From contig JAIQFX010000044.1 of assembly GCA_020073005.1 (NCBI GenBank), positions 20,878 through 84,877 of the forward strand: a stretch of DNA of 64,000 nucleotides, read 5' to 3'. The translations under genes and the position numbers were made by a program. Source of the stretch: Terriglobia bacterium (GTDB lineage Bacteria > Acidobacteriota > Vicinamibacteria > Vicinamibacterales > CAVVIG01). The notes beneath the pieces are model-generated. The model made no database searches. It was not told the DNA's origin and worked only from the letters and a program-made list of their open reading frames with translations. Of the stretch, positions 34,440 to 61,624 are shown piece after piece; position 1 is the stretch's first letter; each line of letters begins with the position of its first letter.

Positions 34440-34573
34440 GATATTGCGCTCGTTCGGACGCCATTCCGCAGCCGGGTCCAGAAATAGACCACGCCGATAA
34501 ATACCTGAAATAAAGCGTCTTAGCGTGTACTTCGTCGCGTTAGTGGTGAGCTCCAGAACACGAGCCCAATTGT

Positions 34574-34588
34574 TGGTACCGGCGTTGC
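34574..34588 (+). promoter_or_regulatory. Sigma54 (-24/-12) promoter of the FliA/WhiG gene
   Basis: TGGTAC-cggcg-TTGC fits TGGYAC-N5-TTGC; AGGAG SD at 34613. Confidence 0.7.
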
Positions 34589-34624
34589 GATAGCGCGCAA
34601 CTGTCGGAAACCAGGAGACACCAC

Positions 34625-35569
34625 ATGCGTGTTCAGCCCGTTGCCGCCAATCAGAACCGCCGTATCGTCGCCAGCTTGCCGTTTGTCGAGGCGCTGGCTC
34701 GACGAATGGCTGCGTCGATGCCGAATTCGATCGACATCGGCGATCTCGTGCAGGACGGCGTGCTCGGTCTCATCGATGCCGCGCATCGCTTCGATGAAGA
34801 TCGCGGCATCAAGTTCGAGACGTTCGCGGAACGGCGCGTGCGCGGCGCGATGATCGACGCGCTTCGCAAGGACGCGTGGCCCCGCGGCGTCCGCCGCCAG
34901 CGGCGCGAGCTCGACGCGGCCCGCGAAGCGCTGCGCCGCGAGCTGGGACACGAGCCGTCGATGGCCGACCTCGCCGCGCGCGTCGGCTCGGACGAGAAAC
35001 GGCTGAGCCGGACCATCGTGCGCATCAACACGATCGAAGCGACGTCGCCGCTCGCGACGGGCGAGCACATGGACGAGAACTCGCTGCCGACCGTGCTCGT
35101 GCCGTCGGAGCCCGACGCGCCGGACATGGCCTACGAAAAGGCCGAGACGCGCGACCGCGTGCGCGCCGCGATTCAATCGCTCCCCTGGCGCGAGCGGAAA
35201 GTGATCGGGCTCTACTACTACGGCGAAGTGACGATGAAGCAGATCGGCGCCGAGATCGGCGTCAACGAATCGCGCGTCTCGCAGCTTCATGCGCGCGCGA
35301 TCCGCCGCCTGCGCGACGCGATCGGCGACATGAACCCGCAGAAGATCGCCGAGATGCGCCGTCAGCTGATCGCGTTCGCGGTGAAGAAGCCGGTGATGGC
35401 GAAGGCGGACGTTCGCTCTGCGTATAAGCCGGACGCGACGATGACCGCCGAGACGGTCGCCACGCCGCACGCCGTCGTCCTGCCGTACAAGGCGACGAAA
35501 CGTACGGCGCCCGTGAAGGCGACGCTCAAGATGGCGCGGTCGCGGCAGGCAGTCGCGGCGGCGAGGTAG
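34625..35569 (+). CDS. fliA: FliA/WhiG-family (sigma28) RNA polymerase sigma factor with basic C-terminal extension
   Basis: DLVQDGVLGLIDAA.RFD, KFETFA..RVRGAMIDALR, LYYY.E.TMKQIG..IGVNESRVSQLH. Confidence 0.88.
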   Translation: MRVQPVAANQNRRIVASLPFVEALARRMAASMPNSIDIGDLVQDGVLGLIDAAHRFDEDRGIKFETFAERRVRGAMIDALRKDAWPRGVRRQRRELDAAREALRRELGHEPSMADLAARVGSDEKRLSRTIVRINTIEATSPLATGEHMDENSLPTVLVPSEPDAPDMAYEKAETRDRVRAAIQSLPWRERKVIGLYYYGEVTMKQIGAEIGVNESRVSQLHARAIRRLRDAIGDMNPQKIAEMRRQLIAFAVKKPVMAKADVRSAYKPDATMTAETVATPHAVVLPYKATKRTAPVKATLKMARSRQAVAAAR

Positions 35570-39078: not shown

Positions 39079-39981
39079 GTGTCACACACGACCCGGCGCG
39101 CGTATCTGGCCTGGATCGCCGTGTGCCTGATCTGGGGCACGACGTATCTCGCCATCCGCATCTCGCTCGAGACCATTCCGCCGCTGCTGATGGCGGCGAT
39201 CAGATGGATCGTCGCGGGCACGCTGCTCATCACGATCCTCAAGATCCGCGGCGAGCGCCTGCCGGGGCCGCGCGCGTGGCCGTCGCTCGCCATCCTCGGC
39301 GTACTGCTGCTCGGCTTCGGCAACGGCGCGGTCGTCTGGGCCGAGCAGACCGTGCCGAGCGGCCTGACGGCCGTGCTCGTCGCCACCTGTCCGTTCTGGA
39401 TGGTCGGCATCGACGCGGTGATGCCGGACGGCGCGCGCCTGACGATCACGCGCGTGGCCGGACTGGCGGTCGGGTTCGGCGGCATCGTCATTCTGGTCTG
39501 GCCGGAAATCCACGCGAGCGACGCCGGCGGCCGCGCGTTCCTCGGCGGCGTGATTGCGGCGCAGATCGCGTGCGTCGGCTGGGCGATCGGATCGTCGTAC
39601 GCCCGCCACCGCGGGCGCGGTCACGCGCGCGACGAAAACGTCCTCGCGACGGCGGCGTTCGAGATGCTGTTCGGCGGCATCGTGCTGCTCGTCGCCGGAC
39701 TCGTCTTGCGCGAAGCCTCGCACCTGGCCTTCACGCCGAGGACGACAGCCGCGCTCGTCTACCTGATCTTCTTCGGCGCGATCGGCGGCTTCACGGCGTA
39801 CGCGTACGCGCTCAAGCATCTTCCCGTCGCCACGGTGTCGCTCTACGCGTACGTCAATCCGATCATCGCGGTCGTGCTCGGGACGATCGTGCTCAGCGAG
39901 CCGCTGAATGCGCGGATGGTGATCGCCGCAGCGGTCGTGCTGGGCGGAATGGCGATGGTCAGGGCTGAAGCGAGAGCCTAG
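39079..39981 (+). CDS. EamA/DMT family transporter (YedA-like)
   Basis: IWGTTYLAIR, about 10 TMs, YAYVNP..AV.LG...L.E; GTG 39079. Confidence 0.9.
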   Translation: MSHTTRRAYLAWIAVCLIWGTTYLAIRISLETIPPLLMAAIRWIVAGTLLITILKIRGERLPGPRAWPSLAILGVLLLGFGNGAVVWAEQTVPSGLTAVLVATCPFWMVGIDAVMPDGARLTITRVAGLAVGFGGIVILVWPEIHASDAGGRAFLGGVIAAQIACVGWAIGSSYARHRGRGHARDENVLATAAFEMLFGGIVLLVAGLVLREASHLAFTPRTTAALVYLIFFGAIGGFTAYAYALKHLPVATVSLYAYVNPIIAVVLGTIVLSEPLNARMVIAAAVVLGGMAMVRAEARA

Positions 39982-47503: not shown

Positions 47504-48772
47504 TCATCGAAGCGCGCCGGTCTGGTACTTCAGCACGGAGGTTCGCGTCTGGTACTCGAACCGCGCGCTCGCCTGGGCGATCTCGGCCTGCGTCTTGCTC
47601 AACTGCGCCTGCGTCAGCTCCACGATCGAGCTCAGCCCGAGGTTGTAGCGCGCCTGCGCGAGGTCGAGCGCCTGCGTGGCCTGCTCGAGGAGCTGATCGG
47701 TGAGCGCCAGACGCTCGAATGCGCTCCTGGCGTCGAGCCAGGCGACGCGGACGTCGCGCGAGATCTGATTCTGAATGTCGAGCAGGCGCTGGCGCTCGGC
47801 TTCCGCCCGGAACATCGCCTCGGCGTGGCGCGCCGGGTAGAGGCTGCCGTTGAACACCGGCACGTTGACGTTCACGCCGACCGCGGCGTAGTGATCGTTC
47901 AGCGTGTCCTGCCGGTACGGGATCGCGCCGAACGCGCCCACGGCGCTGATGGACGGCAGCGCGAGGTCTCCCTCGGCGTCCGCGAACCGCGCGACGGCCT
48001 CCGACGAAAATCTCGCGGCCGCCACCTCCGGCCGATCGCGCATCGCGGCCGCAATCAGCGCCGTCTCGTCCTGCGGCGGAGGCGGAGGCTGCTGTTCCTC
48101 GACGAGCGTGTACTCGCGCTCTTCAGACGATCCCATCGCGGCGGCGAGGTCCGCGTAGGCGCCCTTGAGATCGTTCTGCGCCTGTACGAGCAGCAGCCGC
48201 GCCTCGCTCAGGTTCACGTTCGCGAAGCTGACGTCGAGGCCGGACTTCAAGTTGCTGGCCGCGAGCGCCGTCACCTGATCGGCGACGACCTTGCGCGTGT
48301 CGACGGTGTCCAGCGCGACGCGCTGCACGGCCTGCGCGCGCATCACGTTGAAGTACGCGCGGTCGACGCGGACGAGCACGTCGGCCTTCCGGCTCGAGAC
48401 GGTCTGATCCTGCGCCTGCGCGAAGAGCGACGCGCTCTCGGAGAGCGCGTGGGTGCGTCCGAAGTCGGTGACCATCTGGCTGATGGTCACGCCGGTCGCA
48501 AACCGATCGTAGATGACCGGATTGTTCAACCCGCCCGCGGCGATGCGGCTGGCGTTCTGCGAGTCGGCGCCGGTCACGCTGCCGTAGACCGTCGGAAAGT
48601 ACGTCGAGCGCGTTTCGCGCACGACTTCGGCCGCGGCTTTCGCCGAGGCCTGCTGCTGCTGGATCTGCGGGTGATGCTGCAGCGCCGCGTCTTCGGCCTG
48701 CTTCAGCGTCAGCGTCTGCGCCGCCGCCGGCGCGGCGGCGAGCAGGCCAATCAACACGAACGCGCGTCTCAT
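47504..48772 (-). CDS. TolC-family outer membrane efflux protein
   Basis: LTLKQA..AL..HP, ARYNLGL, VPVFNG; ATG 48772. Confidence 0.9.
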   Translation of the reverse strand: MRRAFVLIGLLAAAPAAAQTLTLKQAEDAALQHHPQIQQQQASAKAAAEVVRETRSTYFPTVYGSVTGADSQNASRIAAGGLNNPVIYDRFATGVTISQMVTDFGRTHALSESASLFAQAQDQTVSSRKADVLVRVDRAYFNVMRAQAVQRVALDTVDTRKVVADQVTALAASNLKSGLDVSFANVNLSEARLLLVQAQNDLKGAYADLAAAMGSSEEREYTLVEEQQPPPPPQDETALIAAAMRDRPEVAAARFSSEAVARFADAEGDLALPSISAVGAFGAIPYRQDTLNDHYAAVGVNVNVPVFNGSLYPARHAEAMFRAEAERQRLLDIQNQISRDVRVAWLDARSAFERLALTDQLLEQATQALDLAQARYNLGLSSIVELTQAQLSKTQAEIAQASARFEYQTRTSVLKYQTGALR

Positions 48773-51700
48773 CGAGCCCTCCGGTACACGAGCAGGTACG
48801 CGGCCGGCACGATGAAGACCGTCAGCCCGACCGACACGATCAAGCCGCCGATGATCGCGCGCGCCAGCGGCGCGTACGCCTCGCTGCCGATGCCGAGCTT
48901 GAGCGCCATCGGTACGAGACCGATGATCGTCGCGAGCGACGTCATCAGAATCGGGCGCAGCCGGATCCGGCACGAATTCACGACGGCGTCGAGCAGCGGC
49001 ATGCCGTCCGCCTCGAGGCGATGCGTGAACTCGACGATGAGGATGCTGTTCGACACGACCATGCCGACCATCATCAGCACGCCCATCAGCGACTGCACGT
49101 TGAGCGTCGTGCCGGTCAGCCAGAGCGCGAGCAGCACGCCCGTGAGGCCGGTCGGCACCGCGAGCAGAATCAGGAACGGATCGACGAACGATCTGAACTG
49201 CGCGACGAGAATCAGGTAGAGCAGGACGAGCGCGAGGATCAGGCCGAGCGCGAAGCTGGTGAACGACGCCTGCATGCCCTGCACCATCCCGCGCATCGCG
49301 ACGCGCACGCCCGCCGTCCGCTTCATCGACGCGAGCACACGGTTGATGCCGCCGGCGAGCGTGCCGAGATCCTCGCCGATCGGGTTTACGTAGATGTCGA
49401 TCACGCGCTGAATCTGGTAGTGATCGATTTCGGTCGGCGACTTCATCGGCGTGATGGACGTCACCGCGTCGAGCAGCGTCGGGTCCTTCACCCGCATGGC
49501 GTGCAGCGGCATGTTCCGCAGATCGAGCAGGCTCTTGATCTCATCCTCGGGATACTGCACCGTCAGCATGTAGTCGTTGCCGCTCTTCGGGTCCACCCAG
49601 TAGCTCGGCGCGATCATCTGGTTCGACGTCAGCGCCGTGATCACGTTGCCCACGACCTCGCGCTGATCGAGACCGAGCTCCGCCGCGCGCTCGCGGTTGA
49701 TGTCCAGGCGCAGCGACGGGTAATCGAGATCCTGCGGAATGAAGACGTCGCTGGCGCCGGGCAGCTTCCGGATGTCGGCCGCGAGATCGGTGGCCGTGTT
49801 GAACACGGCGTCGAGATTCGATCCGCTGAGCTGGACGTCGATCGGCGCCGGCAGCCCCTGGTTCAGGACGGCGTCGACCATGCCGCCCGACTGGAAGTAC
49901 GTGCTCAGGTGCGGCAGCTCGCTGGCGATCGCGCGTCGCGTGCGCTCCATGTACTCGTAGCTGCCGACGCGGTGGTTCTCCTTGAGCGCCACCTGCACGG
50001 TCGCCGTGTGCGGCCCGGCGTTGCTCGTGTAGATCGACGAGAAGCCCGGCTGGACGCCGATGTTCGACGCGATGAGGTCCAGATCCTCCGGCGCGACGAC
50101 CTTGCGCACGAGCGCTTCGACGCGATCGACGTCGCTCGTCGTGACCTCGATCCGCGATCCCGTCGGCGACTTCACGTTGATGACGAACTGGCCGGCGTCG
50201 GTGCGCGGGAAGAACGCGACGCCGAGGAGCGGATAGAGCAGCAGGCTCACCAGGAACAGCGCCGTGATTGCCGCGACGACGAGCCGCGGCGCGACGAGCG
50301 CCTTTCGCACCGTCTGCTCGTACCAGGTCAGCAGCCGGCCGAATTGAGCGGCGAACGCGGCGTTGAAGCGCTGGCCGAACGACAGCTTCACGCCCGGCAC
50401 GGCGTTCGCGCCTTCGGGATGCCCGGCCGGATCGTGAGTGCCGGGTTCGGCCGGACCGTGACCCTTCATCAATCGCGCGCAGAAGAGCGGCACGACCGAG
50501 CACGCGACGAAATACGACGCGACGAGCGACAGGACGACCGACAGCGCCAGCGCCGAGAACAGGAACCGGCTCACGCCGTAGAGGAACGTCACCGGGAAGA
50601 ACACGACCGAGCTCGTGAGCGTCGCGGCGAGCACGGCCATCGCGACTTCCTCGCCGCCCTTCTCGGCCGCGATCTCGGGCGGCTCGCCCATCTCCAGGTG
50701 CCGGAAGATGTTCTCGAGCACGATGACGGCGTTGTCGATCAACCGCGAGAACACCAGCGCGAGGCCGGCGAGAATCATCGTGTTGATCGAGCTGCCGCCG
50801 AAGTAGAGCATGATGAACGCGGCGAGCGCCGAGAGCGGAATCGACAGGAACACCGCGACCGTCGCGCGGAAGCTGCCGAGGAAGACGAGCACCATCACAC
50901 CGGTCAGCAGCAGGCCGACGCCGCCTTCGCGCACGAGCGTCTCGATCGCGCGCTTGACGAAGAGCGACTGATCGAACACGACCGACGGCACGAGCTGCGA
51001 CGGAACGTCCACGAGCCGGCCGACGAGGTCCTTGATGCCGTCGACGACGGCGATCGTGTTCGTGTCGCCGCCCTGCTTCATCACCGGCAGGTAGACAGAC
51101 GGCTGGCCGTCCACCTTCACGACGTTGACCTGAATCTGGTGGCCGTCCTCGGCCCAGCCGACGTCGGAGACGCGGACGGTCGACTGGCCGACGGCTTTCA
51201 GCGGGATCTGATTGATCTCGGGAATGGTCCGGAACTGGCTGTTGGTGAAGATCGTGTAGTCGAACGGCCCGAGCTTGACGTCACCCGACGGCAGAATCAG
51301 GTTGGCGTTGTTGACCGCGCGGACGACGTCCATCGGGCTCATCTCGTACGCGTGGAGCTTCGACGGATCGACGTAGACCATGATCTGCCGGTACTTCCCG
51401 CCGAACGGCGGCGGAATCGACGCGCCCGGTACGCTCGCGAGCTGGTTGCGGACGGTGAACTGCCCGAGGTCGCGCAGCGCGGTCTCGTTCAATCCTTCGC
51501 CCTTCAGCGTGATGAGGCACACGGGCAGGCTCGACGCGTCGAACTTCTGCACGATCGGCGGCAGCGTGCCCGGCGGCAGCCGTCGCAGGTCCGCCATCGC
51601 GAGGTTCGAGATCTCGTTCACGTCGGAGTCGGCGTCGGTGCCCGGCTGGAAATACACCTTGATGATGCTGACGCCCGGGAGCGACCGCGACTCCATGTGA

Positions 51701-51927
51701 TCGATGCCGGCGCCCAGCGTGAAGAAGCGCTCGAACCGCCCGGTGATGTCGGTCTCGATCTGCTCGGGCGGCATGCCGTTATAAAACGTCGCGACGACGA
51801 CTTCGGGAATGTTGATGTTCGGAAACAGATCGACCGGCATCCGCACCACGCTCGTCAAGCCGATGACGATGACGATGAGGCAGATGACGACGATCAGGTA
51901 CGGATTGCGGATCGAGAAACGCGCCAT
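48769..51927 (-). CDS. RND efflux permease (AcrB/CusA superfamily)
   Basis: MPVDLFPNI, SIPLS, IDNAVIVLENI, RLRPILMT. Confidence 0.93.
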   Translation of the reverse strand: MARFSIRNPYLIVVICLIVIVIGLTSVVRMPVDLFPNINIPEVVVATFYNGMPPEQIETDITGRFERFFTLGAGIDHMESRSLPGVSIIKVYFQPGTDADSDVNEISNLAMADLRRLPPGTLPPIVQKFDASSLPVCLITLKGEGLNETALRDLGQFTVRNQLASVPGASIPPPFGGKYRQIMVYVDPSKLHAYEMSPMDVVRAVNNANLILPSGDVKLGPFDYTIFTNSQFRTIPEINQIPLKAVGQSTVRVSDVGWAEDGHQIQVNVVKVDGQPSVYLPVMKQGGDTNTIAVVDGIKDLVGRLVDVPSQLVPSVVFDQSLFVKRAIETLVREGGVGLLLTGVMVLVFLGSFRATVAVFLSIPLSALAAFIMLYFGGSSINTMILAGLALVFSRLIDNAVIVLENIFRHLEMGEPPEIAAEKGGEEVAMAVLAATLTSSVVFFPVTFLYGVSRFLFSALALSVVLSLVASYFVACSVVPLFCARLMKGHGPAEPGTHDPAGHPEGANAVPGVKLSFGQRFNAAFAAQFGRLLTWYEQTVRKALVAPRLVVAAITALFLVSLLLYPLLGVAFFPRTDAGQFVINVKSPTGSRIEVTTSDVDRVEALVRKVVAPEDLDLIASNIGVQPGFSSIYTSNAGPHTATVQVALKENHRVGSYEYMERTRRAIASELPHLSTYFQSGGMVDAVLNQGLPAPIDVQLSGSNLDAVFNTATDLAADIRKLPGASDVFIPQDLDYPSLRLDINRERAAELGLDQREVVGNVITALTSNQMIAPSYWVDPKSGNDYMLTVQYPEDEIKSLLDLRNMPLHAMRVKDPTLLDAVTSITPMKSPTEIDHYQIQRVIDIYVNPIGEDLGTLAGGINRVLASMKRTAGVRVAMRGMVQGMQASFTSFALGLILALVLLYLILVAQFRSFVDPFLILLAVPTGLTGVLLALWLTGTTLNVQSLMGVLMMVGMVVSNSILIVEFTHRLEADGMPLLDAVVNSCRIRLRPILMTSLATIIGLVPMALKLGIGSEAYAPLARAIIGGLIVSVGLTVFIVPAAYLLVYRRAR

Positions 51928-53141
51928 TACGGTTTTCCTTCCGCGGCCTGGGTCTCGCTGACCTTCGGCGTGGCGGCGGTGCCGGCTTTCAACTGACTGC
52001 GGCTGCCGACGACGACGAGGTCGTTTTCAATCAGCCCCGAGGTGATTTCGACGCGATCCGGCAGCTCGAGGCCGGTCTTCACCGCGCGGCGCTCGAGCGT
52101 GCCGCCGTTGACGACCATCACGCTGGTCTTCTGTTCGTCACGATCGAGCGCCTGCACCGGCACGATCAGCGCGCCCGTGATGCGATCGAGCGCGATGTCC
52201 GCGTACGCGTACATGCCGGGAATCAATTCGAGGTTCGCGTTGGCCACGTCCACCTCGGTCTCCATCGTCCGGGTATCGGCGCTGAGTCTTTCGGCGAAGC
52301 GCGCGATCTTTCCGGGATACGTGCGGCCGAGCGCCTGCACGCGCACGTCGACCGGTTCGCCGAGCCGGATGCGCGTGACGGCGGATTCGGGAACAGGAAT
52401 CGTCAGGCGGAGCAGCCGGTTCTCCGACAGCCTGACGATCGGCATCGTCTGCGTCTGCGACGCGGTGCCGGCCTGAATCATCGCGCCGGTGTCGGCGTAG
52501 CGATGCGTGATCACGCCTTCGAACGGCGCCGTGATGCGCGCGTACGCGAAGAGCGTCTGCGTCTTGTTCTGCGTCGCTTTCGAGACCTCGAGTTGCTGTT
52601 CGGCAGCGGCGAGCGTGGCCTGAGCCGTCGCCACCTGCGCTTCGGCGATGCGATCGCGCGCCGTGGCATCGTCGACGTCCTGCTGCGCGACGAGGTTGGG
52701 CCGTTCCTTGATGACGGCGGCCAGCCGCGTCGACGAGAGGTGCGCCACCTGGTGCGCGGACTCCGCGCGTTCGAGATCCGCTTTCGCGCGGCGGATCTCT
52801 TCGGCGTTCCGCCGGACGGCGGCATCGTCCTGGCGCATTTCGTCCTGCAGCTCGGGAATCTCGAGCACCGCGAGCAGCTGTCCCGCCTTCACGCGGTCGC
52901 CGACGTCGACCCCGATCGATTTCACGTAACCGGCGACCTTCGCGTGGACGTCGATCTCCTGGTACGGCCTGAACTCGGCCGCCAGCGACAGCGTCTGCGT
53001 CAGGTCGCCGCGCGCGACCCTGGCCACCGCGACGGTCGGCGGCGCCGCGGCCGACTGATTGTCGGCGGCGCGCGTGGAGGAACAGCCGGCGCTCGCCAGC
53101 GCGACGCCGAGGATGACAGCCGTAACGTGTGTCGTCGTCAT
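51927..53141 (-). CDS. RND periplasmic adaptor (MFP), lipoprotein
   Basis: Lipobox SAGC, VDVGDRVKAGQLLA, ITAPFEG, LIPGMY; ATG 53141. Confidence 0.92.
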   Translation of the reverse strand: MTTTHVTAVILGVALASAGCSSTRAADNQSAAAPPTVAVARVARGDLTQTLSLAAEFRPYQEIDVHAKVAGYVKSIGVDVGDRVKAGQLLAVLEIPELQDEMRQDDAAVRRNAEEIRRAKADLERAESAHQVAHLSSTRLAAVIKERPNLVAQQDVDDATARDRIAEAQVATAQATLAAAEQQLEVSKATQNKTQTLFAYARITAPFEGVITHRYADTGAMIQAGTASQTQTMPIVRLSENRLLRLTIPVPESAVTRIRLGEPVDVRVQALGRTYPGKIARFAERLSADTRTMETEVDVANANLELIPGMYAYADIALDRITGALIVPVQALDRDEQKTSVMVVNGGTLERRAVKTGLELPDRVEITSGLIENDLVVVGSRSQLKAGTAATPKVSETQAAEGKP

Positions 53142-53839
53142 GTGCGATGTACCTTTGAACCGTTGATGATCGCGCGGAGCCCTTCGATGGAAAACTCCGC
53201 CGATTTGCAGAAGTCGATCACTCGCTGCTCGCGCGCCTGCATTTCCTGCGCGACCCAGGGAATCTCGGCCGCGATCGCCGGCGGGATGCTCTGCAGGCCG
53301 TGACAGTCGCCGAAGAGCATGTCTCCCGTCCGCACGCTCAAGCCGGCGACTTCGACGGGCTCGCCGAAATCGACGATGTGCACGTACGCGTGCGAGACCG
53401 AAATCGATCCGGCGAACAACTGCAGGCCCGTGCGGCCGACGCCGTCGAGATCGCGCACCGCGCCGTTGGTCGCGTACGCGTGGCAGTCGAGCGCGCGGAG
53501 GATGTTGGCGTGCACCTCGCCGACGAGCGCGCCGCGGCCGATGAAGTCGTCGACGTCCTGGACGACGATGATGCGCGGCGCCGGCACCGTGCCGATATAG
53601 GTCCACCAGTCGGTGCGGTCGAAGTAGTTGTGGCCGACGGGCGGCGGCGTCGACGCGCGAATGCGCGCCGTGACCGCGTGACCGACCACCGGCGCCTGGC
53701 GTTCGAACAGGCAGCGGATGCGGCCGTCGGTGAACCCCTCGTTGCGGAGCCGGACGTCGAACGTTTCGATGGCATTCGCGATGGCGCAGCCGTCAAGTCG
53801 GCGAAGCGCGGTCGCGAGACCGGCGTCGAGTGCGTGCAT
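53138..53839 (-). CDS. RraA/HMG-aldolase family protein
   Basis: VGHAVTA, ALVGEV, TNGAVRD, GDMLFGDCHG. Confidence 0.82.
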   Translation of the reverse strand: MHALDAGLATALRRLDGCAIANAIETFDVRLRNEGFTDGRIRCLFERQAPVVGHAVTARIRASTPPPVGHNYFDRTDWWTYIGTVPAPRIIVVQDVDDFIGRGALVGEVHANILRALDCHAYATNGAVRDLDGVGRTGLQLFAGSISVSHAYVHIVDFGEPVEVAGLSVRTGDMLFGDCHGLQSIPPAIAAEIPWVAQEMQAREQRVIDFCKSAEFSIEGLRAIINGSKVHRT

Positions 53840-53857
53840 GAATGAGACTCCTCGCGC

Positions 53858-53954
53858 AGTCCGCCTGCGGCGGACACTACCGAACACGAGTCCGCCTGAA
53901 GGCGGACACTACGGCGGAGAAATGGACCAGTCGTGGCGGCCGGCTTCAGCCGGC
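53858..53954. repeat. Cluster of GTAG-type REP-like palindromes
   Basis: agtccgcc-tgc-ggcggacactac 53858-53880, agtccgcc-tgaa-ggcggacactac 53889-53912, inverted degenerate copy 53933-53954. Confidence 0.8.
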
Positions 53955-53961
53955 TCCGGTC

Positions 53962-54273
53962 CTAGGCGAGGGGCGGCGCGCGAAGCGCTTCGGGCGGAGC
54001 GGTTTCCGGCGAGGGAACGGGATCGCGGTCGGCGACGGGGCACACGCGCTCGATCGTGGGCGTCGGCGCGGCGAGCGGCTCGCTCGAGGCGACCGGGCGC
54101 GGCATGTCGATCAGGATCTTCGAGGGCGGACAGTCCGCCGACTTGCTGAACGACGCGGTCAGGGTTGCGGCCGTCGATCGTTGGTCGAGCTGCTGGTACA
54201 CGCGCGTCAGCGAGGGCACGCACAGCAGGACGAGCACGAGCAGCGCGGCGAACGGATGGCGCACGAAACTCAC
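53962..54273 (-). CDS. Leader ORF with N-terminal signal/TM and C-terminal RAPP motif (candidate arrest peptide)
   Basis: FAALLVLVLLCVP, Pro-rich linker, ends ALRAPPLA-stop; start GTG 54273 or 54264. Confidence 0.65.
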   Translation of the reverse strand: MSFVRHPFAALLVLVLLCVPSLTRVYQQLDQRSTAATLTASFSKSADCPPSKILIDMPRPVASSEPLAAPTPTIERVCPVADRDPVPSPETAPPEALRAPPLA

Positions 54274-54341
54274 TCTACGTCCGTTAGCCGTTCAAAAGCA
54301 ACGGTTTGGCCTGTAGCGTGTTCCTTACTCGGGGTCGCGAA

Positions 54342-54776
54342 TCACCCCTCGCGAACTTCTGGCTCGAGGCGGATCGGCGTCGAGAGCGACGCCGAAACGA
54401 GACACGCCTTCTCGCTCTTCTCCATGACGCGCAAGGCCCGCGCGTGATCCGTGCCCGGGGCGACGGTCATCCGCGGGCGCAGGACGATCTCGGTGAACCG
54501 CGTGACGCCGTCCACACGATCGACCGTGCCCGCGATGTCGACGTCGAGCGCCGTGAACTGCACTTTCGACAGGGCGGCGACCGAGCGGAGCGTCAGCATG
54601 AAGCACGTCTCCACGGCCGCGAGCAGCAGATGCTCGGGACTCCACGCGTCGCCGGGGCCGTCGAAGTCCTTCGGCGCCGCCGCGGACAGCTCGGGCAGCC
54701 CGTTGGTCGTCAGCCGGACGTATCCCGTGGGTCCGCCCGCGAGGTGCGCGTCGTAATGATGAGGAAAGGGTTGCAT
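54342..54776 (-). CDS. OsmC/Ohr family protein
   Basis: FDGPGDAWSPEHLLLAAVETC and KACLVSASL (two Cys). Confidence 0.88.
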   Translation of the reverse strand: MQPFPHHYDAHLAGGPTGYVRLTTNGLPELSAAAPKDFDGPGDAWSPEHLLLAAVETCFMLTLRSVAALSKVQFTALDVDIAGTVDRVDGVTRFTEIVLRPRMTVAPGTDHARALRVMEKSEKACLVSASLSTPIRLEPEVREG

Positions 54777-54792: not shown

Positions 54793-55002
54793 TCAGTGCG
54801 CGATGGGACTGCGCTGATCGGGCACGCCCGCCGATCGCAGAATCGACATCATCGGGCACCAGCCCGTGAACGCCGACTGCGTGAGGTTTACGCCGACGAA
54901 CAGCGTGAACCACAGAAAGTACGGATGCACGAACATGCCGAGCAGCACGCTCGCGGCGACGAAGACGCCGGCGATCAGCCGGATCATCGGTTCAACGGTC
55001 AT
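54793..55002 (-). CDS. DUF2892/YgaP-like small membrane protein
   Basis: [29 protein letters not shown]. Confidence 0.85.
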
Positions 55003-58000
55003 GATAATGCTCCTCTCCGGTGCGTCAGGTAATACGTGATCGGAACGGTCATGCGCGACAGCAGCAGCGACGCGACTTCGCCCGCCATCAGCGAGATGGC
55101 GAGGCCTTGAAAGATCGGATCGAACAGGATGACGGCCGAGCCGGCGATGACGGCGGCCGCGGTCAGCGCCATCGGTCGGAACCGCACGGCCCCGGCGTCC
55201 ACGACGGCGGCTTCGAGCGGCATGCCGTCCCGCACGCGCAGCTCGATGAAGTCCACGAGGATGATCGAGTTGCGGACGACGATGCCCGCGCCGGCGATGA
55301 AGCCGATCATCGACGTGGCCGTGAAGAACGCGCCGAGGAGCGCGTGCGCGGGCAGAATGCCGACGAGCGAGAACGGAATGGCCAGCATGATCGTCAGCGG
55401 CGTGATGAACGACTGGAACCATCCCATGATGAGGATGTAAATCAGGACCAGCACGGCCGCGAACGCGATGCCGAGATCGCGGAAGACCTCGTACGTGATG
55501 TGCCACTCGCCGTCCCACTTCATCGCGTACTTCGAGCTGTCGAACGGCTGGCGCGTGTTGTAGACCTCGAGGCCGTAGCCCTCTGGAAACCTGATCGACC
55601 CCAGCGCCTTGTTCATCTGCAGAATCGCGTAGACCGGACTCTCGATCGATCCGGCGACGTCGCCCGTCACGTACGTCACCGGAAGCAGGTTCTTGTGATA
55701 GACGCTCTGCTCCTCGACCGCGGGCACGGCGCGCGTCAGCTCGCCGACGGCGACGGACTGCAGACCCCGGAGGCGAATCGCGCGGACGGCGTCGAGCGAT
55801 CCGCGATCCTCGCGCGGGAGGCGCAGCACGATCGGCACGTCCTCGCGGGCGCGCGGATCGTGGAGCAGGCCGGCGGCCGCACCGGATCCGGCCATGCGCA
55901 CGACGGCCGCAACGCTCGACGGCGCGACGCCGGCGGCGGCGGCCTTCTCGGTGTCGACGTCGAGCTGCCACTTCGGCCGCGCGGACTCGACGTACCAGTC
56001 CGCGTCGACGACGCCGGCCGTGTGCTCGAACGTCGCGCGGACCTGTCGCGCGAGATCGAGGCGGCGTGCGGCATCGGGTCCGTAGACTTCGGCAACCAGC
56101 GTCTGCAGCACCGGCGGACCCGGCGGCACTTCGACGACCTGAAGATGCGCGCCGAGGCGCTCGGCGACCGGCGCGAGCGAGACGCGGATGCGCTTGGCGA
56201 TCGCGTGGCTCTGCTCGCGGCGCTCGTCCTTGCCGACGAGCAACAGCTGCAAATCCGCCAGGCTCGGATCGCGGCGCAGGAAGTAGTGCCGCACCAGCCC
56301 GTTGAACGTGTACGGCGCGGACGCGCCGGCGTAGCTCTGGACGCTGACGACCCGCGGATCTTTCAGCGCTTCATCGGCGAGCGCGGTCGCGACTCGTGAC
56401 GTCGTCTCGAGCGAGGTGTCGTCCGGCATCCGGATCATCACCTGGAGTTCGCTCTTGTTGTCGAACGGCAGCATCTTCACCGTCACGGCGCCCACCGGCA
56501 CGAGCACGACCGCGCCAAGCAGCAGCGCCGCGATCAAGGCGAGGAAGCCGGCGCGGGCGCCGGCGCGATGAATCAGCGGACCCATCACTCGGCGATAGAG
56601 CGCGGTGAGCCGATCCTCGCCGGCATCACCATGGGCGCTTTCGCGCCCATCATGAGTGGCATGGCGCTTCAGCAGGCGGACCGCCGCCCAGGGAGTCACG
56701 ATGAACGCGACGACGAGCGAGAAGAGCATCGCGGCCGTCGCGCCGACCGGGATGGGCCGCATGTACGGACCCATCAGCCCGCCGACGAACGCCATCGGCA
56801 GGATCGCGGCGACGACGGTCAGCGTCGCGAGGATCGTCGGATTCCCGACCTCGTCGACGGCGCGAATCGCGACCGCCTCCAGATTTCCCCCGGCCATTCG
56901 CGCGTGACGCACGATGTTCTCGACGACGACGATCGCATCGTCGACGAGGATGCCGATCGAGAAGATGAGCGCGAACAGCGTGATGCGGTTCAGCGTGTAG
57001 CCGTAGAGATAGAAGACGAACAGCGTCAGCGCGAGCGTGACGGGAATCGCCGTCAGCACGACGAGCGATTCGCGTCGGCCGAGCGTCAGCCAGATGAGCA
57101 CGGAGACCGAAAGGATGGCGAGCAGCATGTGCCAGAGCAGCTCGTTCGATTTCTGCTCGGCCGTCTCGCCGTAATTTCTCGTGATGGACAGCTGCACGTC
57201 GCCCGGCAGCGAATAGCCGCGCACGGTGTCCAGCTTCTGTTCGATCGTGCGCGTGAGCTGAATCGCGTTCACGCCCTTGCGCTTGGCAATCGTCAGCGTG
57301 ACGGCGGGGAACGATTGGCCGTGCTTCGGGTGATAGCTGACGTAGTCGACCGGCTCGCCGCCGCCGTCCGTGACCGACGCCACATCGTCGAGATGCACCG
57401 GCGCGCCGCCGGCGTGGCCGACGACGATGCGCTTCAGCGACGCGATCGAGTCCGGCCACGCGCCGGCTTCGAGCCGCGTGACGGCGCCGCCGCTGACGAT
57501 GTCGCCGGCGGATGTCCTCGCGTTCGCCGCCGAGAGCGCCTGCTGGACGGACAGCGGATCGAGATCGCGCGCGGCGAGCGCGGCCGGGTCGAGATCGATC
57601 GTGAGCTGGCGAGGCTGGCCGCCGGTGATCGTCACTTCGGAGATGTCCGGGACTTCCTTGAGCGTGTCATGCAGCTGCGCCGCCATTTGCCGCAGTTGCA
57701 CGTGGTCGTACGGCGCACCCCACAGCGTGATCGCCATCACCGGCACATCGTCGATCGAGCGCGCCTTCACGAGCGGAAGCGAGACGCCCGGCGGCAGGCG
57801 ATCGAGATTCGCGGACAGCTTCTGATTCAGGCGCACGAGCGCCTTCTCCTCGTCCTGGCCGACGAGAAAACGGACGACGACCATCGCGCGGCCGGCGCTC
57901 GACGTGGAATAGAGGTACTCGACGCCCGGCACTTCCCAGAGCAGCTTCTCCATCGGCCGCGTCACGCGCTGTTCGACTTCGCCCGGCGACGCGCCCGGCA

Positions 58001-58172
58001 TCTCGACGAACACGTCGATCATCGGGACGATGATTTGCGGCTCTTCCTCGCGCGGCAGCGCGACGACGGCGTAGACGCCCATCAGAAGCGACGCGAGGAT
58101 GAACGCGGGCGTCAGCTTCGAATGGATGAACGCGCCGGCGAGTCGCCCCGCCATGCCGACGTGACGTGTCAT
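54999..58172 (-). CDS. RND efflux permease
   Basis: [38 protein letters not shown]. Confidence 0.93.
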
Positions 58173-59338
58173 CGGCGATCTCCGGTCACGCGCGCGCCGT
58201 CGGTCAGCGCGGGCGATGGCGTGGCGACGAGCGGTTCGCCAGTGGTCAGGCCCGAAAGAATTTCAATTCTCTCGTCGGTCGCTGGCCCGGCCGAGACCGG
58301 CCGCAGCCGCGCGTGCCCTTCACCGTCGACGGCGAAGACGAACGTCATCTGCCCGCGATGAATCACGGCCGACGCGGGAACAGTGAGCGCGTCATGCGTC
58401 TCGGCGACGATGCGCGCGCGGCCGAACGCGCCCGATTTGAGCGCCGGCGACAGCGGCACGTCGATCTTCGCGATGAACCCGTGACCGGTCGGATCGAGGC
58501 GCGAGATTTCGGACACGCGCCCGGCCTGCCAATCCTTTGCCGCGGACTCGTCCAATCGGATCTGCACCTGCTGTCCGACGGCGAGGCCGCTCGCGCGCGA
58601 CTCGTCGAGCCGGACTTCCAGCCGGAAAGACGATGTGTCTTCGAGCGTCAGCAGCGGCGCGCCCGGTGTCGCGAGCGTTCCGGGATCGACCGCGCGGTCG
58701 GCGACGATGCCGTCGAACGGCGCGGTCAGCGTGGTGTACGAGAGCGCGATCGCCGCGCCGTTGACCGACGCCTCGGCGGCCTTCAGCCCCGCGGCCGCTT
58801 CGGCCGCATGCGCGTCCGCGCCGGCCACGCGCGCTTCGGCCGCACGCAGCGCGGCGACGGCTTCGTCGAGCTCCTGCGCGGTCGCCGATCGCGTCGCGGC
58901 GAGACGGCTCATGCGATCGTGAGTCGCCGACGCCAGCATCAGCCCGGCGGCGGCGCCTTTCTGCTCGGATTCCGCGCCGCGGATCGCCTGCTGCGCCGCC
59001 GTCAGCGCGGCGGCGGCGCGATCGGACTGCGCGCGCATCTCGCGGCTGTCGAGCACGACGAGCACCTGACCCTGCCTGACGCGATCGCCGGGACGGACGC
59101 GGACTTCGGCGATGGGCGCCATCACGCGGCTCGCAATCGCCGACGTCAAACGCGCGCGCAGCACGCCGCCGGCTTCGACGTGCGACGGAATGCGCGCGGC
59201 TTCGGCGCGAACGATCGTCGCCTCGACCTTCGGCGTCGTCTCGGTGATCGGAGCTTTCGCCGAAGGCGCGGCGCACGCGATCGAGAGGGCGGCGATGGAT
59301 AAAAAAACGATCAGAGGTTTCACGTTCAGGCCTCGCAT
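58169..59338 (-). CDS. RND periplasmic adaptor (MFP), lipoprotein
   Basis: Lipobox [24 protein letters not shown]; ATG 59338. Confidence 0.9.
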
Positions 59339-59340
59339 GA

Positions 59341-60681
59341 TTACGGTTTCCGTCCGACCGCACGATCGAGCATCGCGCGGCTGACCACGGCGTCCACGAG
59401 GGCGTTGATGCGCTGCGACTCGGCGTCGAGCACGGCGGACGATGCGCGAAGCACGTCGGTCGCGCCGGCGACGCCCGCGTCGAACCGGTTCCGGATGATG
59501 CGTTCGCTCTCGCGCGCCTGCGCGACGGTGGCCTGTCCGACGGCCTGCCGGGCGCGGGCCGATTCGAGGCGCCGCAGCGCCGTGACGATCTCGACCTGCG
59601 CGGCCGCGCGCGCTTCGTCGCGATCCAGCCGCGAGCGCGTCGCGGTCTCGGCCGCGGCCTGCACGTGCGCGCGCTCGGCGCCGCCGAGCGACAAATTCCA
59701 TCGCAGCTCGGCGCCGACGATCCACGACGACGCGCGATCGGTGAGCTGCGTGCCTGCGACTTCGTAGCCGGCCTGCGCACCCACTTGTGGAAACCACGCC
59801 GCGCGGGCGAGCGTGCGGCCCGTGTCCGCGAGCTGCTCGGCCGCCGCGCTCCGGCGGAGATCGGGACGCGACGCGTCGGCTTCGGCGAACAGCGCCGCCA
59901 GCGACGACGCACTGGTCTCGCCCGGTGCCGGCGGTGGCTCCTGCACGGCGAACTCGCGGTCGATCGGCGATCCCATCAAGCGGTTCAGTTCGGCGCGCGC
60001 GACGGCGTAGTCGCCGGCCGCCTGAATGCGCCGCTGCCGCACGTCGGCGAGGTGGACGGCCAGCGCGAGGACGTCGGCGTCGGTCATCGTGCCCGCGTCC
60101 CGGCGCCGTTCGGCGCGCGCGACGTCTTCCTGCGCCGCGGCGATCGCGCCGTCGGCGGCGCGCGCCATCGCGTCGGCGGCGACCGCGCGGCCGTACGCCT
60201 GGCTCACCGCGACCGCGAGGCCGGACGCCGCTTCGTCGGCGCCGAGGCCGGCGATGTCCTGCTGCAGCCGGGCCGACCGCACCGAGGCGCGCGTCCGCCC
60301 CGCGTCGAAGATCTGTTGATCGATGGAGAAGGCGCCGCGGAAGAATCCCGTCGGGTCCGGCGAGTTGAGGGCGTCGATGGCGAAGTTGGCCGCGCCGAAC
60401 TTGCGCGCGGAGAGCAGCGAGCTGAACACGAAGACCGGCTGATCGCCGCGCTGCCACGATTCGGTGAACGAGACGCGCGGGAAGAATCCGGCGCGCGCTT
60501 CGGTGACGTGGGCCGCCGATTCGCGCGCGGCCGACTGCGCGCCCAGCAGCGAGCGATTGTGCGCAAGCGTTTCCTGTACGGCCTGCTCGAGCGTCAGCGG
60601 CGTCTGGGCCCGCGCCGTCGAGGGCGACAGTGCCAGGGACGCGAGCACGGCGAGGCGGGTGAGGCGCAAAACGGGGCTCAT
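59341..60681 (-). CDS. TolC-family outer membrane efflux protein
   Basis: Signal peptide, LTLEQAV..N, FPRV, RFDAGV. Confidence 0.9.
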   Translation of the reverse strand: MSPVLRLTRLAVLASLALSPSTARAQTPLTLEQAVQETLAHNRSLLGAQSAARESAAHVTEARAGFFPRVSFTESWQRGDQPVFVFSSLLSARKFGAANFAIDALNSPDPTGFFRGAFSIDQQIFDAGRTRASVRSARLQQDIAGLGADEAASGLAVAVSQAYGRAVAADAMARAADGAIAAAQEDVARAERRRDAGTMTDADVLALAVHLADVRQRRIQAAGDYAVARAELNRLMGSPIDREFAVQEPPPAPGETSASSLAALFAEADASRPDLRRSAAAEQLADTGRTLARAAWFPQVGAQAGYEVAGTQLTDRASSWIVGAELRWNLSLGGAERAHVQAAAETATRSRLDRDEARAAAQVEIVTALRRLESARARQAVGQATVAQARESERIIRNRFDAGVAGATDVLRASSAVLDAESQRINALVDAVVSRAMLDRAVGRKP

Positions 60682-60725: not shown

Positions 60726-61379
60726 ATGGCCGCGTCGAATCGCGCTGTGACCAAAACACGGAATTCGCATCTCTCCCCTGAAGAGAACGACACGAGCGAC
60801 ACGCGCGTAGCGGAGTGCGCGCGTCTGGTTCGTCAGGCCGCCGCCGGCGATCGCGACGCCATGGAGCGTCTGCTGATGCAGGCGCAGGAGGTGGCGTTCC
60901 GCTTCAGCTTTCTCGTCTGCGGCCATGCGCAGGACGCGGAAGACGTCATGCAGGATGCCTTGCTAAAGACGTACCGTCACATCGGGCGCATCCGCGAGCC
61001 CGAGCACTTCCGGACCTGGCTGTACAAGACCGTGCGCAACACGTGTCTGATGAAACGCCGCCGACGCGTGGACGAACCGTCGCATCTGCTGTCGATCGAG
61101 CAGGGCGGACCGGCGTCGGGCGACGGCTTCACGGCGGTCGATGTGGAAGATCCGGCGCAGGGACCGGACGAAGCGGCGATGAATACGTGGCTCGGCGAGC
61201 GCCTGCGCGCCGCGCTGAAGGCGCTGCCGCCGTCGTATCGCATGATCGTGTTCCTGCGCGAAATGGAAGGGCTCTCGACGCGCGAGGTCGCGAAGGTGAC
61301 CGGCATCTCCGAAGCGAACGTGAAGACGCGGCTGCATCGCGCGCGCGGGATTCTACGAGAGCAGTTGGAGGATGTATGA
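60726..61379 (+). CDS. ECF RNA polymerase sigma factor
   Basis: DAEDVMQD, FRTWLY, LP..YR....LREMEGLST.EVA, VKTRLHRAR; start uncertain. Confidence 0.92.
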   Translation: MAASNRAVTKTRNSHLSPEENDTSDTRVAECARLVRQAAAGDRDAMERLLMQAQEVAFRFSFLVCGHAQDAEDVMQDALLKTYRHIGRIREPEHFRTWLYKTVRNTCLMKRRRRVDEPSHLLSIEQGGPASGDGFTAVDVEDPAQGPDEAAMNTWLGERLRAALKALPPSYRMIVFLREMEGLSTREVAKVTGISEANVKTRLHRARGILREQLEDV

Positions 61380-61624
61380 AGGCCGGTGACTGCGCGGCGA
61401 TCCTCGCGCATATCTCCGCGTACCTGGACGGCGAGCTCGAGGCGACCGAGTGCGACGCGATCGAGCGCCACTGCCGCGAGTGCGATTCGTGCGCGTCGGT
61501 GGTCGCAGGTCTGCGTCACACCGTCGGGCTGTGCCGCGAGGCCGGGAGCGCGCCGCTGCCGGACGTCGTGCGAGCGAAAGCCCGTGAGAGCGTGAAGAAG
61601 CTGCTCGCCGAAAAGAAGTCGTAG
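61376..61624 (+). CDS. Soluble zinc-finger (ZAS, zf-HC2) anti-sigma factor
   Basis: C..ISAYLDGEL..HCRECDSC (HxxxCxxC), extra Cys residues, no TM. Confidence 0.88.
   Translation: MKAGDCAAILAHISAYLDGELEATECDAIERHCRECDSCASVVAGLRHTVGLCREAGSAPLPDVVRAKARESVKKLLAEKKS

Follow-up and report, generated by a model that had tools for sequence, protein, structure and literature searches.

A small open reading frame (ORF) ahead of an efflux pump operon in the genome of a Terriglobia bacterium (assembly GCA_020073005.1, contig JAIQFX010000044.1) is quite probably the gene of a regulatory leader peptide that arrests ribosomes by a RAPP/RGPP motif, as judged from its conserved sequence and by analogy to known arrest peptides. 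The whole stretch of DNA analyzed, here called the window, is 64,000 nt long. All coordinates are those of the window, and both the leader and the operon are on its minus strand. The genes that follow the leader encode an RraA-like protein, a membrane-fusion protein (MFP), a resistance-nodulation-division (RND) permease and a TolC-family outer-membrane factor (OMF). A preliminary description of this DNA had proposed translation-arrest control of the efflux pump. Comparative tests of motif, distance and context are in agreement with the proposal, and from these we infer the stalling and its effect on the pump.

The leader ORF is at positions 53962–54273 (minus strand, stop included), with a GTG start and a chain length of 103 aa. 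The amino acid sequence of this form is VSFVRHPFAALLVLVLLCVPSLTRVYQQLDQRSTAATLTASFSKSADCPPSKILIDMPRPVASSEPLAAPTPTIERVCPVADRDPVPSPETAPPEALRAPPLA-stop, and the C-terminus with its stop codon reads ...PPEALRAPPLA-TAG. The real start is probably a second GTG at position 54264 (ORF 53962–54264), which gives a 100 amino acid chain (MRHPF...), because a −10-like hexamer, TAGAGT (positions 54272–54277), overlaps the first GTG. Several database homologues are annotated from a start equivalent to the second GTG. The preliminary description had pointed to an ORF of about 100 aa with a hydrophobic N-terminal segment and the terminal sequence LRAPPLA-stop, and this is what is found (100–103 aa). The hydrophobic stretch is F8–L22, with a mean Kyte-Doolittle hydropathy of 2.79 in a 15-residue window. 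The Pro-rich spacer with two Cys residues is also present in the window sequence (C48 and C78 in the post-signal part, and in addition C18 inside the hydrophobic segment), but these cysteines are not conserved across the family. As to position, a distance of about 120 nt upstream on the same strand was correct (122 nt). The start coordinate of 53839 was not, this being the A of the ATG of the rraA-like gene, and the strand, which had been left unstated, is the minus strand.

A word-indexed protein search yielded 15 homologues, one of which carries the source name “MAG: hypothetical protein ... Acidobacteria bacterium”. An alignment of 15 rows (the window protein and 14 of the homologues) shows LRAPP, LLCVPSLTRV.Q.LD, F42 and P49–P50 to be invariant, and this includes two rows at 31%–33% identity. 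A six-frame search of 118 genomes of the taxonomic family detected the leader ORF in 20 genomes, representing 6 of 43 genera. The peptide end [LF]R[AG]PP is present in all 20 loci, and the tail between motif and stop codon is of 2 residues (3 loci), 4 (2), 5 (13) or 6 (1), with one exception that is described below. A profile search that covered 1.84 billion cluster representatives gave 220 proteins or clusters at E-value ≤ 1e-3, 66 of them at E-value ≤ 1e-10, and nearly all are about 100 aa in length. Among the best 150 of the 220, 144 display the motif within the last 14 residues (RAPP 95, RGPP 48, RAPG 1) with tails of 2–9 residues; the remaining six are fragments, a frameshift-like fusion, or have longer tails of 13 to 14 residues. 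R[AG]PP and its distance to the stop are therefore both conserved, which the preliminary description had proposed as a check on orthologous operons. The leader is found ahead of 25 of 30 rraA loci.

The motif codons differ synonymously between loci (Arg CGC/CGG/AGA, Ala GCG/GCA/GCT/GCC, Pro CCN), which argues that selection on the leader acts on the peptide. Differences at codon positions 1/2/3 number 203/130/362 over 8 pairwise comparisons, and gaps are of whole codons only. The homologues, the invariant motif, the synonymous codon variation, the third-position excess and the whole-codon gaps indicate, at the level of sequence, that the leader frame is under protein-coding selection.

Beyond the taxonomic family, a broad profile places the leader family in 13 of 401 sampled genomes of the order, across three of its families. 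In a sample of 401 genomes from the phylum it was found only in the source genome and in one other genome of the same order. (In both samples 11 candidates per genome were scored, so that a non-match means “not found” and not “absent”.)

For a position profile, 147 representatives were anchored without gaps on RxPP. The arrest core is R 100%, A 67% or G 33%, P 100%, P 100%. The C-terminal module that precedes it consists of D/E at positions −16/−15, L-P at −13/−12, S-P at −10/−9, P at −4, D/R at −3 and L (84%) at −1. In the window this module extends from D82 to LRAPP (positions 53971–54030), with the RAPP codons at 53971–53982, and is followed by the two-residue tail Leu-Ala and the TAG stop (53962–53970; stop codon 53962–53964). 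The conserved −16 to −1 segment would be long enough to fill the upper exit tunnel of the ribosome.

The N-terminal part of the profile has a hydrophobic core at −90 to −79 and then V-P-x-x-x-R. In the window sequence these correspond to FAALLVLVLLC and VPSLTRV (positions 54199–54252), a putative export signal identified from the alignments, the hydrophobic columns and a predicted helix. In the leader alignments V19, P20 and R24 (numbered on the 103-aa form) each stand at above 90% or are invariant, which also holds for the P and R of the motif in an alignment of 114 sequences. In most members V-P-x-x-x-R resembles a signal-peptide c-region (...TRA, ARA, VRA); the window subfamily has TRV. AlphaFold2, used with the 114-row alignment, gives a single helix at residues 4–34 (100-aa numbering) and no other structure (predicted TM score 0.32).

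A second motif lies some 50 residues N-terminal to the arrest site. In the anchored profile it appears as F at −58 to −54 and PP/K at −50 to −46. The pattern is SFxKxxDCPPxK, and the window version is SFSKSADCPPSK (positions 54118–54153), which includes the conserved F42 and P49/P50. The spacing from F to the R of the arrest motif is 54–57 residues in 27 of the 27 pattern-matched sequences, out of 36; the other nine spell the motif differently. The linker of about 45 residues between this mid motif and the C-terminal module is not conserved in sequence, but its alignment is almost gap-free. The distance from mid motif to arrest site is thus held constant.

The preliminary description was correct in noting that the peptide lacks the CxxC of copper-sensing leaders. 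The family has no conserved Cys or His in the alignments: 27 of the 147 representatives have no Cys and 53 have one. A Cys pair, C18/C48, was considered as a family-wide thiol or metal sensor and rejected: it looked covarying in the 20 family loci, but among the 147 representatives, which include the 27 without Cys, C18 and C48 are weakly associated (26/37/19/65, odds ratio 2.4, p = 0.019, uncorrected for relatedness). The leader family is also without a model in Pfam and NCBIfam, both of which were scanned, and for this reason goes unannotated. The window leader has no Pfam match, DUF2946 (PF11162) included, at E-value ≤ 0.1. When 56 members were compared with DUF2946, none was above the 23.7-bit cut-off; the best reached 15.4 bits, and two sub-threshold matches had E-values of 0.032 and 0.41.

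The motif alone is not remarkable in this GC-rich genome. The whole genome (5.86 Mb, 179 contigs) was translated in six frames, and stop-to-stop frames of at least 40 aa were counted. R[AG]PP is present in the last 12 residues of 130 frames, while the control motif A[AG]PP is found in 123 and the reversed motif in 185; C-terminal R[AG]PP, taken alone, occurs no more often than chance would give. A strongly hydrophobic 15-residue window is found in just one of the 130 R[AG]PP frames, and this is the leader ORF itself. It is conservation, and not the motif alone, that lifts the leader above chance.

The leader is linked to pump genes. In the 20 loci of the taxonomic family the gene order is leader–rraA-like–MFP in 14 and leader–MFP–RND without rraA in 4, so that 18 of 20 are pump-linked. 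One of the other two is at a contig edge, and one (in genome G494) has neither rraA nor an MFP gene within 1.5 kb. The broad-profile loci add two cases of leader–rraA–MFP and two of leader–MFP–RND. Viewed from the rraA side, orthologues are found in 31 of the 118 genomes, and 30 loci were returned. Fifteen of these were already known leader carriers, ten more show a family-type R[AG]PP ORF just upstream (one frameshifted and one cut by a contig end), and five do not.

With regard to the G494 locus (contig C98; L045/L056), an LRGPP-type leader is followed by an apparent C-terminal remnant of a TolC-type gene and then by a DUF4118-like histidine kinase gene. The translations, read by eye, look as if rraA, the MFP and RND genes and most of the OMF gene had been deleted.

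Members of the family also precede other genes. The source genome has a second, distant paralogue (contig C141, positions 34514–34798, minus strand; L063), which ends in ...ALRAPPAR-stop, matches the family profile with E-value = 1.5e-9 and is 49 nt upstream of an OEP/TolC-type gene. Paralogues elsewhere precede a CarboxypepD_reg (receptor-like) gene and a gene for a small Collar-domain protein, and one doubtful paralogue precedes a sigma-54 activator gene. One leader family thus serves several envelope operons in this uncultured acidobacterial order, those of RND adaptor, TolC-type and receptor-like genes.

The leader has the features of the RAPP/RGPP class (Sakiyama 2021; Fujiwara 2024, 2025): a C-terminal R-A/G-P-P, an N-terminal hydrophobic segment and conserved linkage to genes on the same strand. 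RAPP and RGPP are reported to give the most robust arrest, refractory to elongation factor P, and such motifs are avoided in proteomes but over-represented toward the C-terminal ends of small proteins that are exported (PMC12992588). All seven proteins of Streptomyces lividans that carry RAPP/RGPP at the C-terminus showed stalling both in vitro and in vivo, and in these and in CruR the stall depends on the motif and occurs with its third codon in the P site (PMC12992588). The source data of the same paper (Fujiwara, Tsuji, Sakiyama, Niki, Chiba, EMBO J 2025, PMC12992588) tabulate RAPP upstream ORFs (uORFs) before RND adaptor and TolC genes, with 620 cases before RND adaptor genes. Control of RND genes by nascent-peptide stalling has been proposed from genome statistics, and the novelty of the present leader is lower than the preliminary description assumed. 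The tabulated uORFs resemble the leader in being small proteins with a localization signal, RAPP/RGPP near the C-terminus and an envelope gene downstream on the same strand. They differ in that the 26 RND-adaptor rows examined in the list are mostly His/Cys-rich, five of them being DUF6769 proteins, whereas the leader family has no conserved Cys or His, and in that most leader loci have an rraA-like gene between leader and adaptor gene. The family strings CVPSLTRV, LLCVPSL and PSLTR do not occur in the examined part of the list; the full list may still include the family. Efflux-linked uORFs are neither discussed nor tested in the main text of that paper, where the word “efflux” occurs 0 times.

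RND pumps are normally described as being under transcription factors and two-component systems. A literature search confined to one paper library found, among the papers listed, none that puts arrest-peptide control of an efflux pump to the test.

A close parallel is CruR (Bp2923) of Bordetella pertussis, a DUF2946/PF11162 protein, whose stall blocks Rho and keeps the downstream genes on (PMC9426467). CruR is likewise an exported uORF peptide with a C-terminal RAPP, which is three residues from its end; a long, GC-rich intergenic stretch separates it, too, from an envelope gene, and its uORF has a region with more C than G (PMC9426467). The arrest of CruR has been demonstrated in vitro (PMC12992588). 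Its CXXC–RAPP spacing is fixed at 45 residues (PMC9426467), and the leader, by analogy and with a different motif, has its mid motif at a fixed distance of about 50. Unlike CruR, the leader has no CXXC and no above-threshold Pfam match. The downstream gene of CruR encodes a TonB-dependent transporter and its signal is copper, while an RND pump is downstream of the leader. CutF of Rhodobacter capsulatus also senses periplasmic copper, by means of Cys residues, and acts by melting a stem-loop over the ribosome binding site (RBS) (bioRxiv 10.1101/2025.02.05.636593); folding at the leader loci lends no support to RBS melting of the CutF type.

SecM, ApdA and ApdP share with the leader a RAGP/RAPP core at the peptidyl-transferase center and an N-terminal export signal, and their arrest is released by export (PMC10951233, PMC7897499, PMC10987492); the same is proposed for the leader. 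The genes downstream differ. Those of SecM, ApdA and ApdP encode Sec/YidC components, which forms a feedback loop on the export machinery, whereas an efflux pump and an RraA-like protein are downstream of the leader. With RraA-like, HlyD_D23, ACR_tran and OEP genes following it, the leader is not one of the Sec/YidC monitoring substrates (SecM, MifM, VemP, ApdA, ApdP), just as it is not a DUF2946 protein. It probably represents a family that is new and lacks annotation, although of a known kind, and that would work like these.

In the mechanism that we infer, four elements are conditional: the stalling, its dependence on export, the way in which expression changes and the part played by Rho. 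The leader would have a promoter of its own, its transcript would have a 5′ untranslated stretch that is very short or absent, and the N-terminal signal sequence would bring the nascent chain to the Sec translocon. At Arg98-Ala-Pro-Pro the last ~20 residues (D..P.SP....P..L-RAPP) would block peptide-bond formation while Pro100 occupies the P site and Pro101-tRNA the A site. The codons expected in the two sites are 53974–53976 (P) and 53971–53973 (A), as assigned from the ApdA, ApdP and CruR toeprints in PMC12992588. At this point the mid motif, ~50 residues back, would have just emerged from ribosome and translocon. Export, or capture of the mid motif, would pull on the chain and end the stall, and a slowing of either would prolong it. 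The stalled ribosome would lead to higher expression of the rraA-like, MFP, RND and OMF genes. In SecM, too, the stalled state turns the downstream operon on. This is also so for CruR (PMC9426467) and CutF (bioRxiv 10.1101/2025.02.05.636593).

A role as nascent-chain sensor is suggested because the C-terminal core, the tunnel-length segment and the position of the mid motif parallel the published arrest class and CruR. A metal signal is unlikely, since there is no conserved Cys or His, and what is sensed is probably not a metal. That the Cys-free mid motif (F-x-K-x-x-D-x-P-P-x-K) senses a non-metal signal, such as a substrate of the pump, a compound that perturbs the membrane or a partner in the periplasm, is a speculative reading. 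If true, it would be the first arrest-peptide switch by which an RND pump of putative multidrug type, together with an RraA-like protein, is tuned to stress of envelope or xenobiotic origin, and not to copper or Sec capacity. The large size of the family (220 clusters), its invariant arrest core, its tunnel-length module and a second motif whose spacing is strictly kept, without the Cys/His of copper sensors, provide a clean test case. The host is a sediment Acidobacterium, and a metal-free family tied to a putative multidrug-type pump would make a good experimental system.

Transcription of the leader may start very close to its GTG. Of 25 loci, 23 have a hexamer TAnA[GCA]T 5′ of the leader ORF, and its position does not vary inside a subgroup. 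In the 20 loci with start codons listed it is mostly 7–21 nt before a candidate start; in some loci an earlier in-frame start overlaps or abuts the hexamer, and in one (L035) the hexamer is inside the candidate ORF. TAGAGT in the window is thus a probable promoter element, and from its position appears to be the promoter of a leaderless or near-leaderless message. No RNA run was listed among the sequencing runs that match the window; the ten runs listed, which match all or part of it, are DNA metagenomes.

As for the route from stall to operon, the intergenic region of 122 nt (positions 53840–53961) has three hairpins with 4-nt loops (53939–53954, 53890–53912 and 53859–53880), and the Shine-Dalgarno (SD) sequence GAGGAG of the rraA-like gene is at 53848–53853, 8 nt before the ATG as read from the sequence. 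The most likely route, held tentatively and by analogy to CruR, is that the C-rich 3′ end of the leader mRNA is shielded by a stalled ribosome, so that Rho could not load and terminate in the hairpin-rich intergenic region. Three observations fit this model, none of which is proof. There is an excess of C over G of +0.2 to +0.4 over the last 60–80 nt before the stop in 18 of 19 stop-bearing loci, the other (L045) being weaker, at most +0.2. The genome has rho, in two full-length copies (C119:46284–47519 and C97:7908–9146) with 725 and 717 bits, far above the TIGR00767 cut-off. Sixteen of 20 loci have a stable hairpin, possibly a pause site, directly 5′ of the SD; the mean is −13.2 kcal/mol versus −10.3 kcal/mol for 540 control windows, with a Mann-Whitney p of 0.002 that is overstated because the loci are related. 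It may be added that the genome has a contamination estimate of 4.63%, and one of the two rho genes may be foreign. A terminator scan of positions 53700–54500 gave 0 matches.

Two of the intergenic hairpins (53859–53880 and 53890–53912) have the form GTAGTGTCCGCC-N-GGCGGAC. They are copies, with a GTAGT 5′ extension, of a dispersed palindrome, GTCCGCC-N3-5-GGCGGAC, which has 63 sites in the genome as opposed to one for a control pattern, mostly with a TTCA/TGAA loop. This palindrome looks like a repetitive extragenic palindromic (REP) type element. The two hairpins were thus rejected as leader-specific elements. In another genus (L034) the corresponding intergenic region has a similar copy, GTCCGGC-TTCA-GCCGGAC. 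A hairpin directly after the stop codon was likewise rejected as a family feature: by eye it is confined to one genus group, and the 36 nt in question give −8.6 kcal/mol versus −10.3 kcal/mol for the control (20 loci).

Several points weigh against a switch of the proposed kind. No SD is visible before the leader ORF in the 20 loci with listed start contexts, so that translation initiation on a leaderless or very short-leader mRNA must be assumed, and a scan of positions 53700–54500 for a consensus sigma-70 promoter gave 0 matches. The signal sequence may be an uncleaved anchor, as the window subfamily has Val (TRV) before the putative signal-peptidase site. One leader (L037 in genome G446, contig C7, ~39481–39765) has no stop after LRAPP and continues in frame into the rraA-like gene, an open frame of 373 aa. 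A representative, P0029, appears similar; the read-through reflects a genuine fusion or loss of the stop, or else an indel of the assembly. The C-richness of the leader end may come simply from its Pro, Ala and Ser codons, and the SD-nearest hairpin in the window, a copy of the genome-wide palindrome, need not belong to the switch. Folding, which had been suggested as a check of the stop-to-SD interval, gives no support to unmasking of the SD. The fold of the whole region is not unusual (z = −1.08). A constrained partition function was used for 22 loci, with a 30-nt footprint at the arrest site and a control footprint 60 nt upstream. The mean unpaired probability of the SD is 0.23 in the free RNA, 0.25 when a ribosome is placed at RAPP and 0.24 for the control footprint, and a gain in accessibility of at least 0.15 is seen in 1 of 22 loci, equal to the control. 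SD unmasking by the stalled ribosome was rejected on these grounds, there being no effect beyond the control.

These data also bear on a second way in which an arrest leader could act, i.e. as in SecM or CutF, where a stalled ribosome would melt structure over the RBS of the rraA-like gene and control would be translational and not by Rho. This mechanism is reported for CutF (bioRxiv 10.1101/2025.02.05.636593), and the SD is mostly paired in all 22 modelled loci (the mean of 0.23 given above). In the minimum free energy fold of the window, moreover, the last codons of the leader (CCUCGC) pair with GCGAGG of the downstream SD. However, this tail–SD pairing is not recovered in the other loci (8 loci compared), the stall site is 49–155 nt from the start codon with no conservation of the sequence in between, and the arrest-site footprint opens the SD in no more loci than does the control. 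RBS melting is thus less likely, and somewhat doubtful, as the route.

The remaining explanations do without stalling altogether. The leader could be a working small exported or membrane protein, for instance an AcrZ-like accessory subunit of the pump, with RAPP in a structural or binding role. The conservation of V-P-x-x-x-R and of the mid motif goes beyond the needs of a mere export signal, and the gene always accompanies envelope genes, both of which would suit such a protein. On the other hand, no fold is predicted except for one helix, and the linker varies freely in sequence but not in length. The motif tolerates only A to G, which gives the other strong arrest sequence, and is always 2–9 residues from the stop; RAPP-like sequences are reported to be avoided in bacterial proteomes (PMC12992588). 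In addition, the same leader family is ahead of unrelated gene types. A small-protein role in place of arrest is therefore improbable, although the two roles are not mutually exclusive. It is very improbable indeed that the ORF arose by chance as an open frame of GC-rich DNA, with the region being merely a long 5′ untranslated leader. For this explanation one may cite that R[AG]PP near frame ends is as common as the controls (130 vs. 123 and 185), that there is no SD before the ORF and that no family model matches. A chance frame would not be expected to agree with the 220 clusters at E-value ≤ 1e-3 that keep frame and length, with the dominance of third-position substitutions, with indels of whole codons or with invariant residues spread along the peptide.

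The operon itself was correctly named in the preliminary description as rraA-MFP-RND-TolC, and Pfam and NCBIfam matches agree with this. The rraA-like gene (positions 53138–53839, minus strand, 233 aa) is the first after the leader and matches PF03737 with 60.6 bits (cut-off 24.5). It is followed by the MFP, or periplasmic adaptor, gene (51927–53090; HlyD_D23; TIGR01730, 181 bits, cut-off 94.9), the RND permease gene (48769–51927; PF00873, ACR_tran, 673 bits) and the OMF gene (47504–48973; PF02321, OEP, 154 bits), which probably starts in fact near 48770, past the RND stop. An OsmC-like gene is upstream of the leader.

NCBIfam subfamily models all score far below their cut-offs with the rraA-like protein, and its sole relative in the PDB is 3k4i, an uncharacterized protein (E-value = 1.4e-4). 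The gene, for a protein of the RraA/aldolase fold, has a conserved first position after the leader, at the head of the efflux operon, and no characterized close relative.

The best NCBIfam matches of the RND permease are the multidrug-type models RND_permease_2/1, above the CusA/CzcA score, with all below their cut-offs: RND_permease_2 gives 556 bits (cut-off 1250) and TIGR00914 (CusA/CzcA) 364 bits (cut-off 701). AcrB-type pumps have an Asp-Asp pair in the proton relay; at what is presumably the corresponding position the translated permease reads LIDNAVIVLEN (Asp-Asn). A second RND permease in the window (54999–58172) has the usual form. It is part of a second OMF-MFP-RND operon directly upstream (54999–60681, minus strand), in which the RND gene was identified by model scan and the rest by eye. 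Beside this second operon is a divergent pair of genes (60726–61624, plus strand) that reads, by eye, as an extracytoplasmic function (ECF) sigma factor and a zinc-finger anti-sigma factor.

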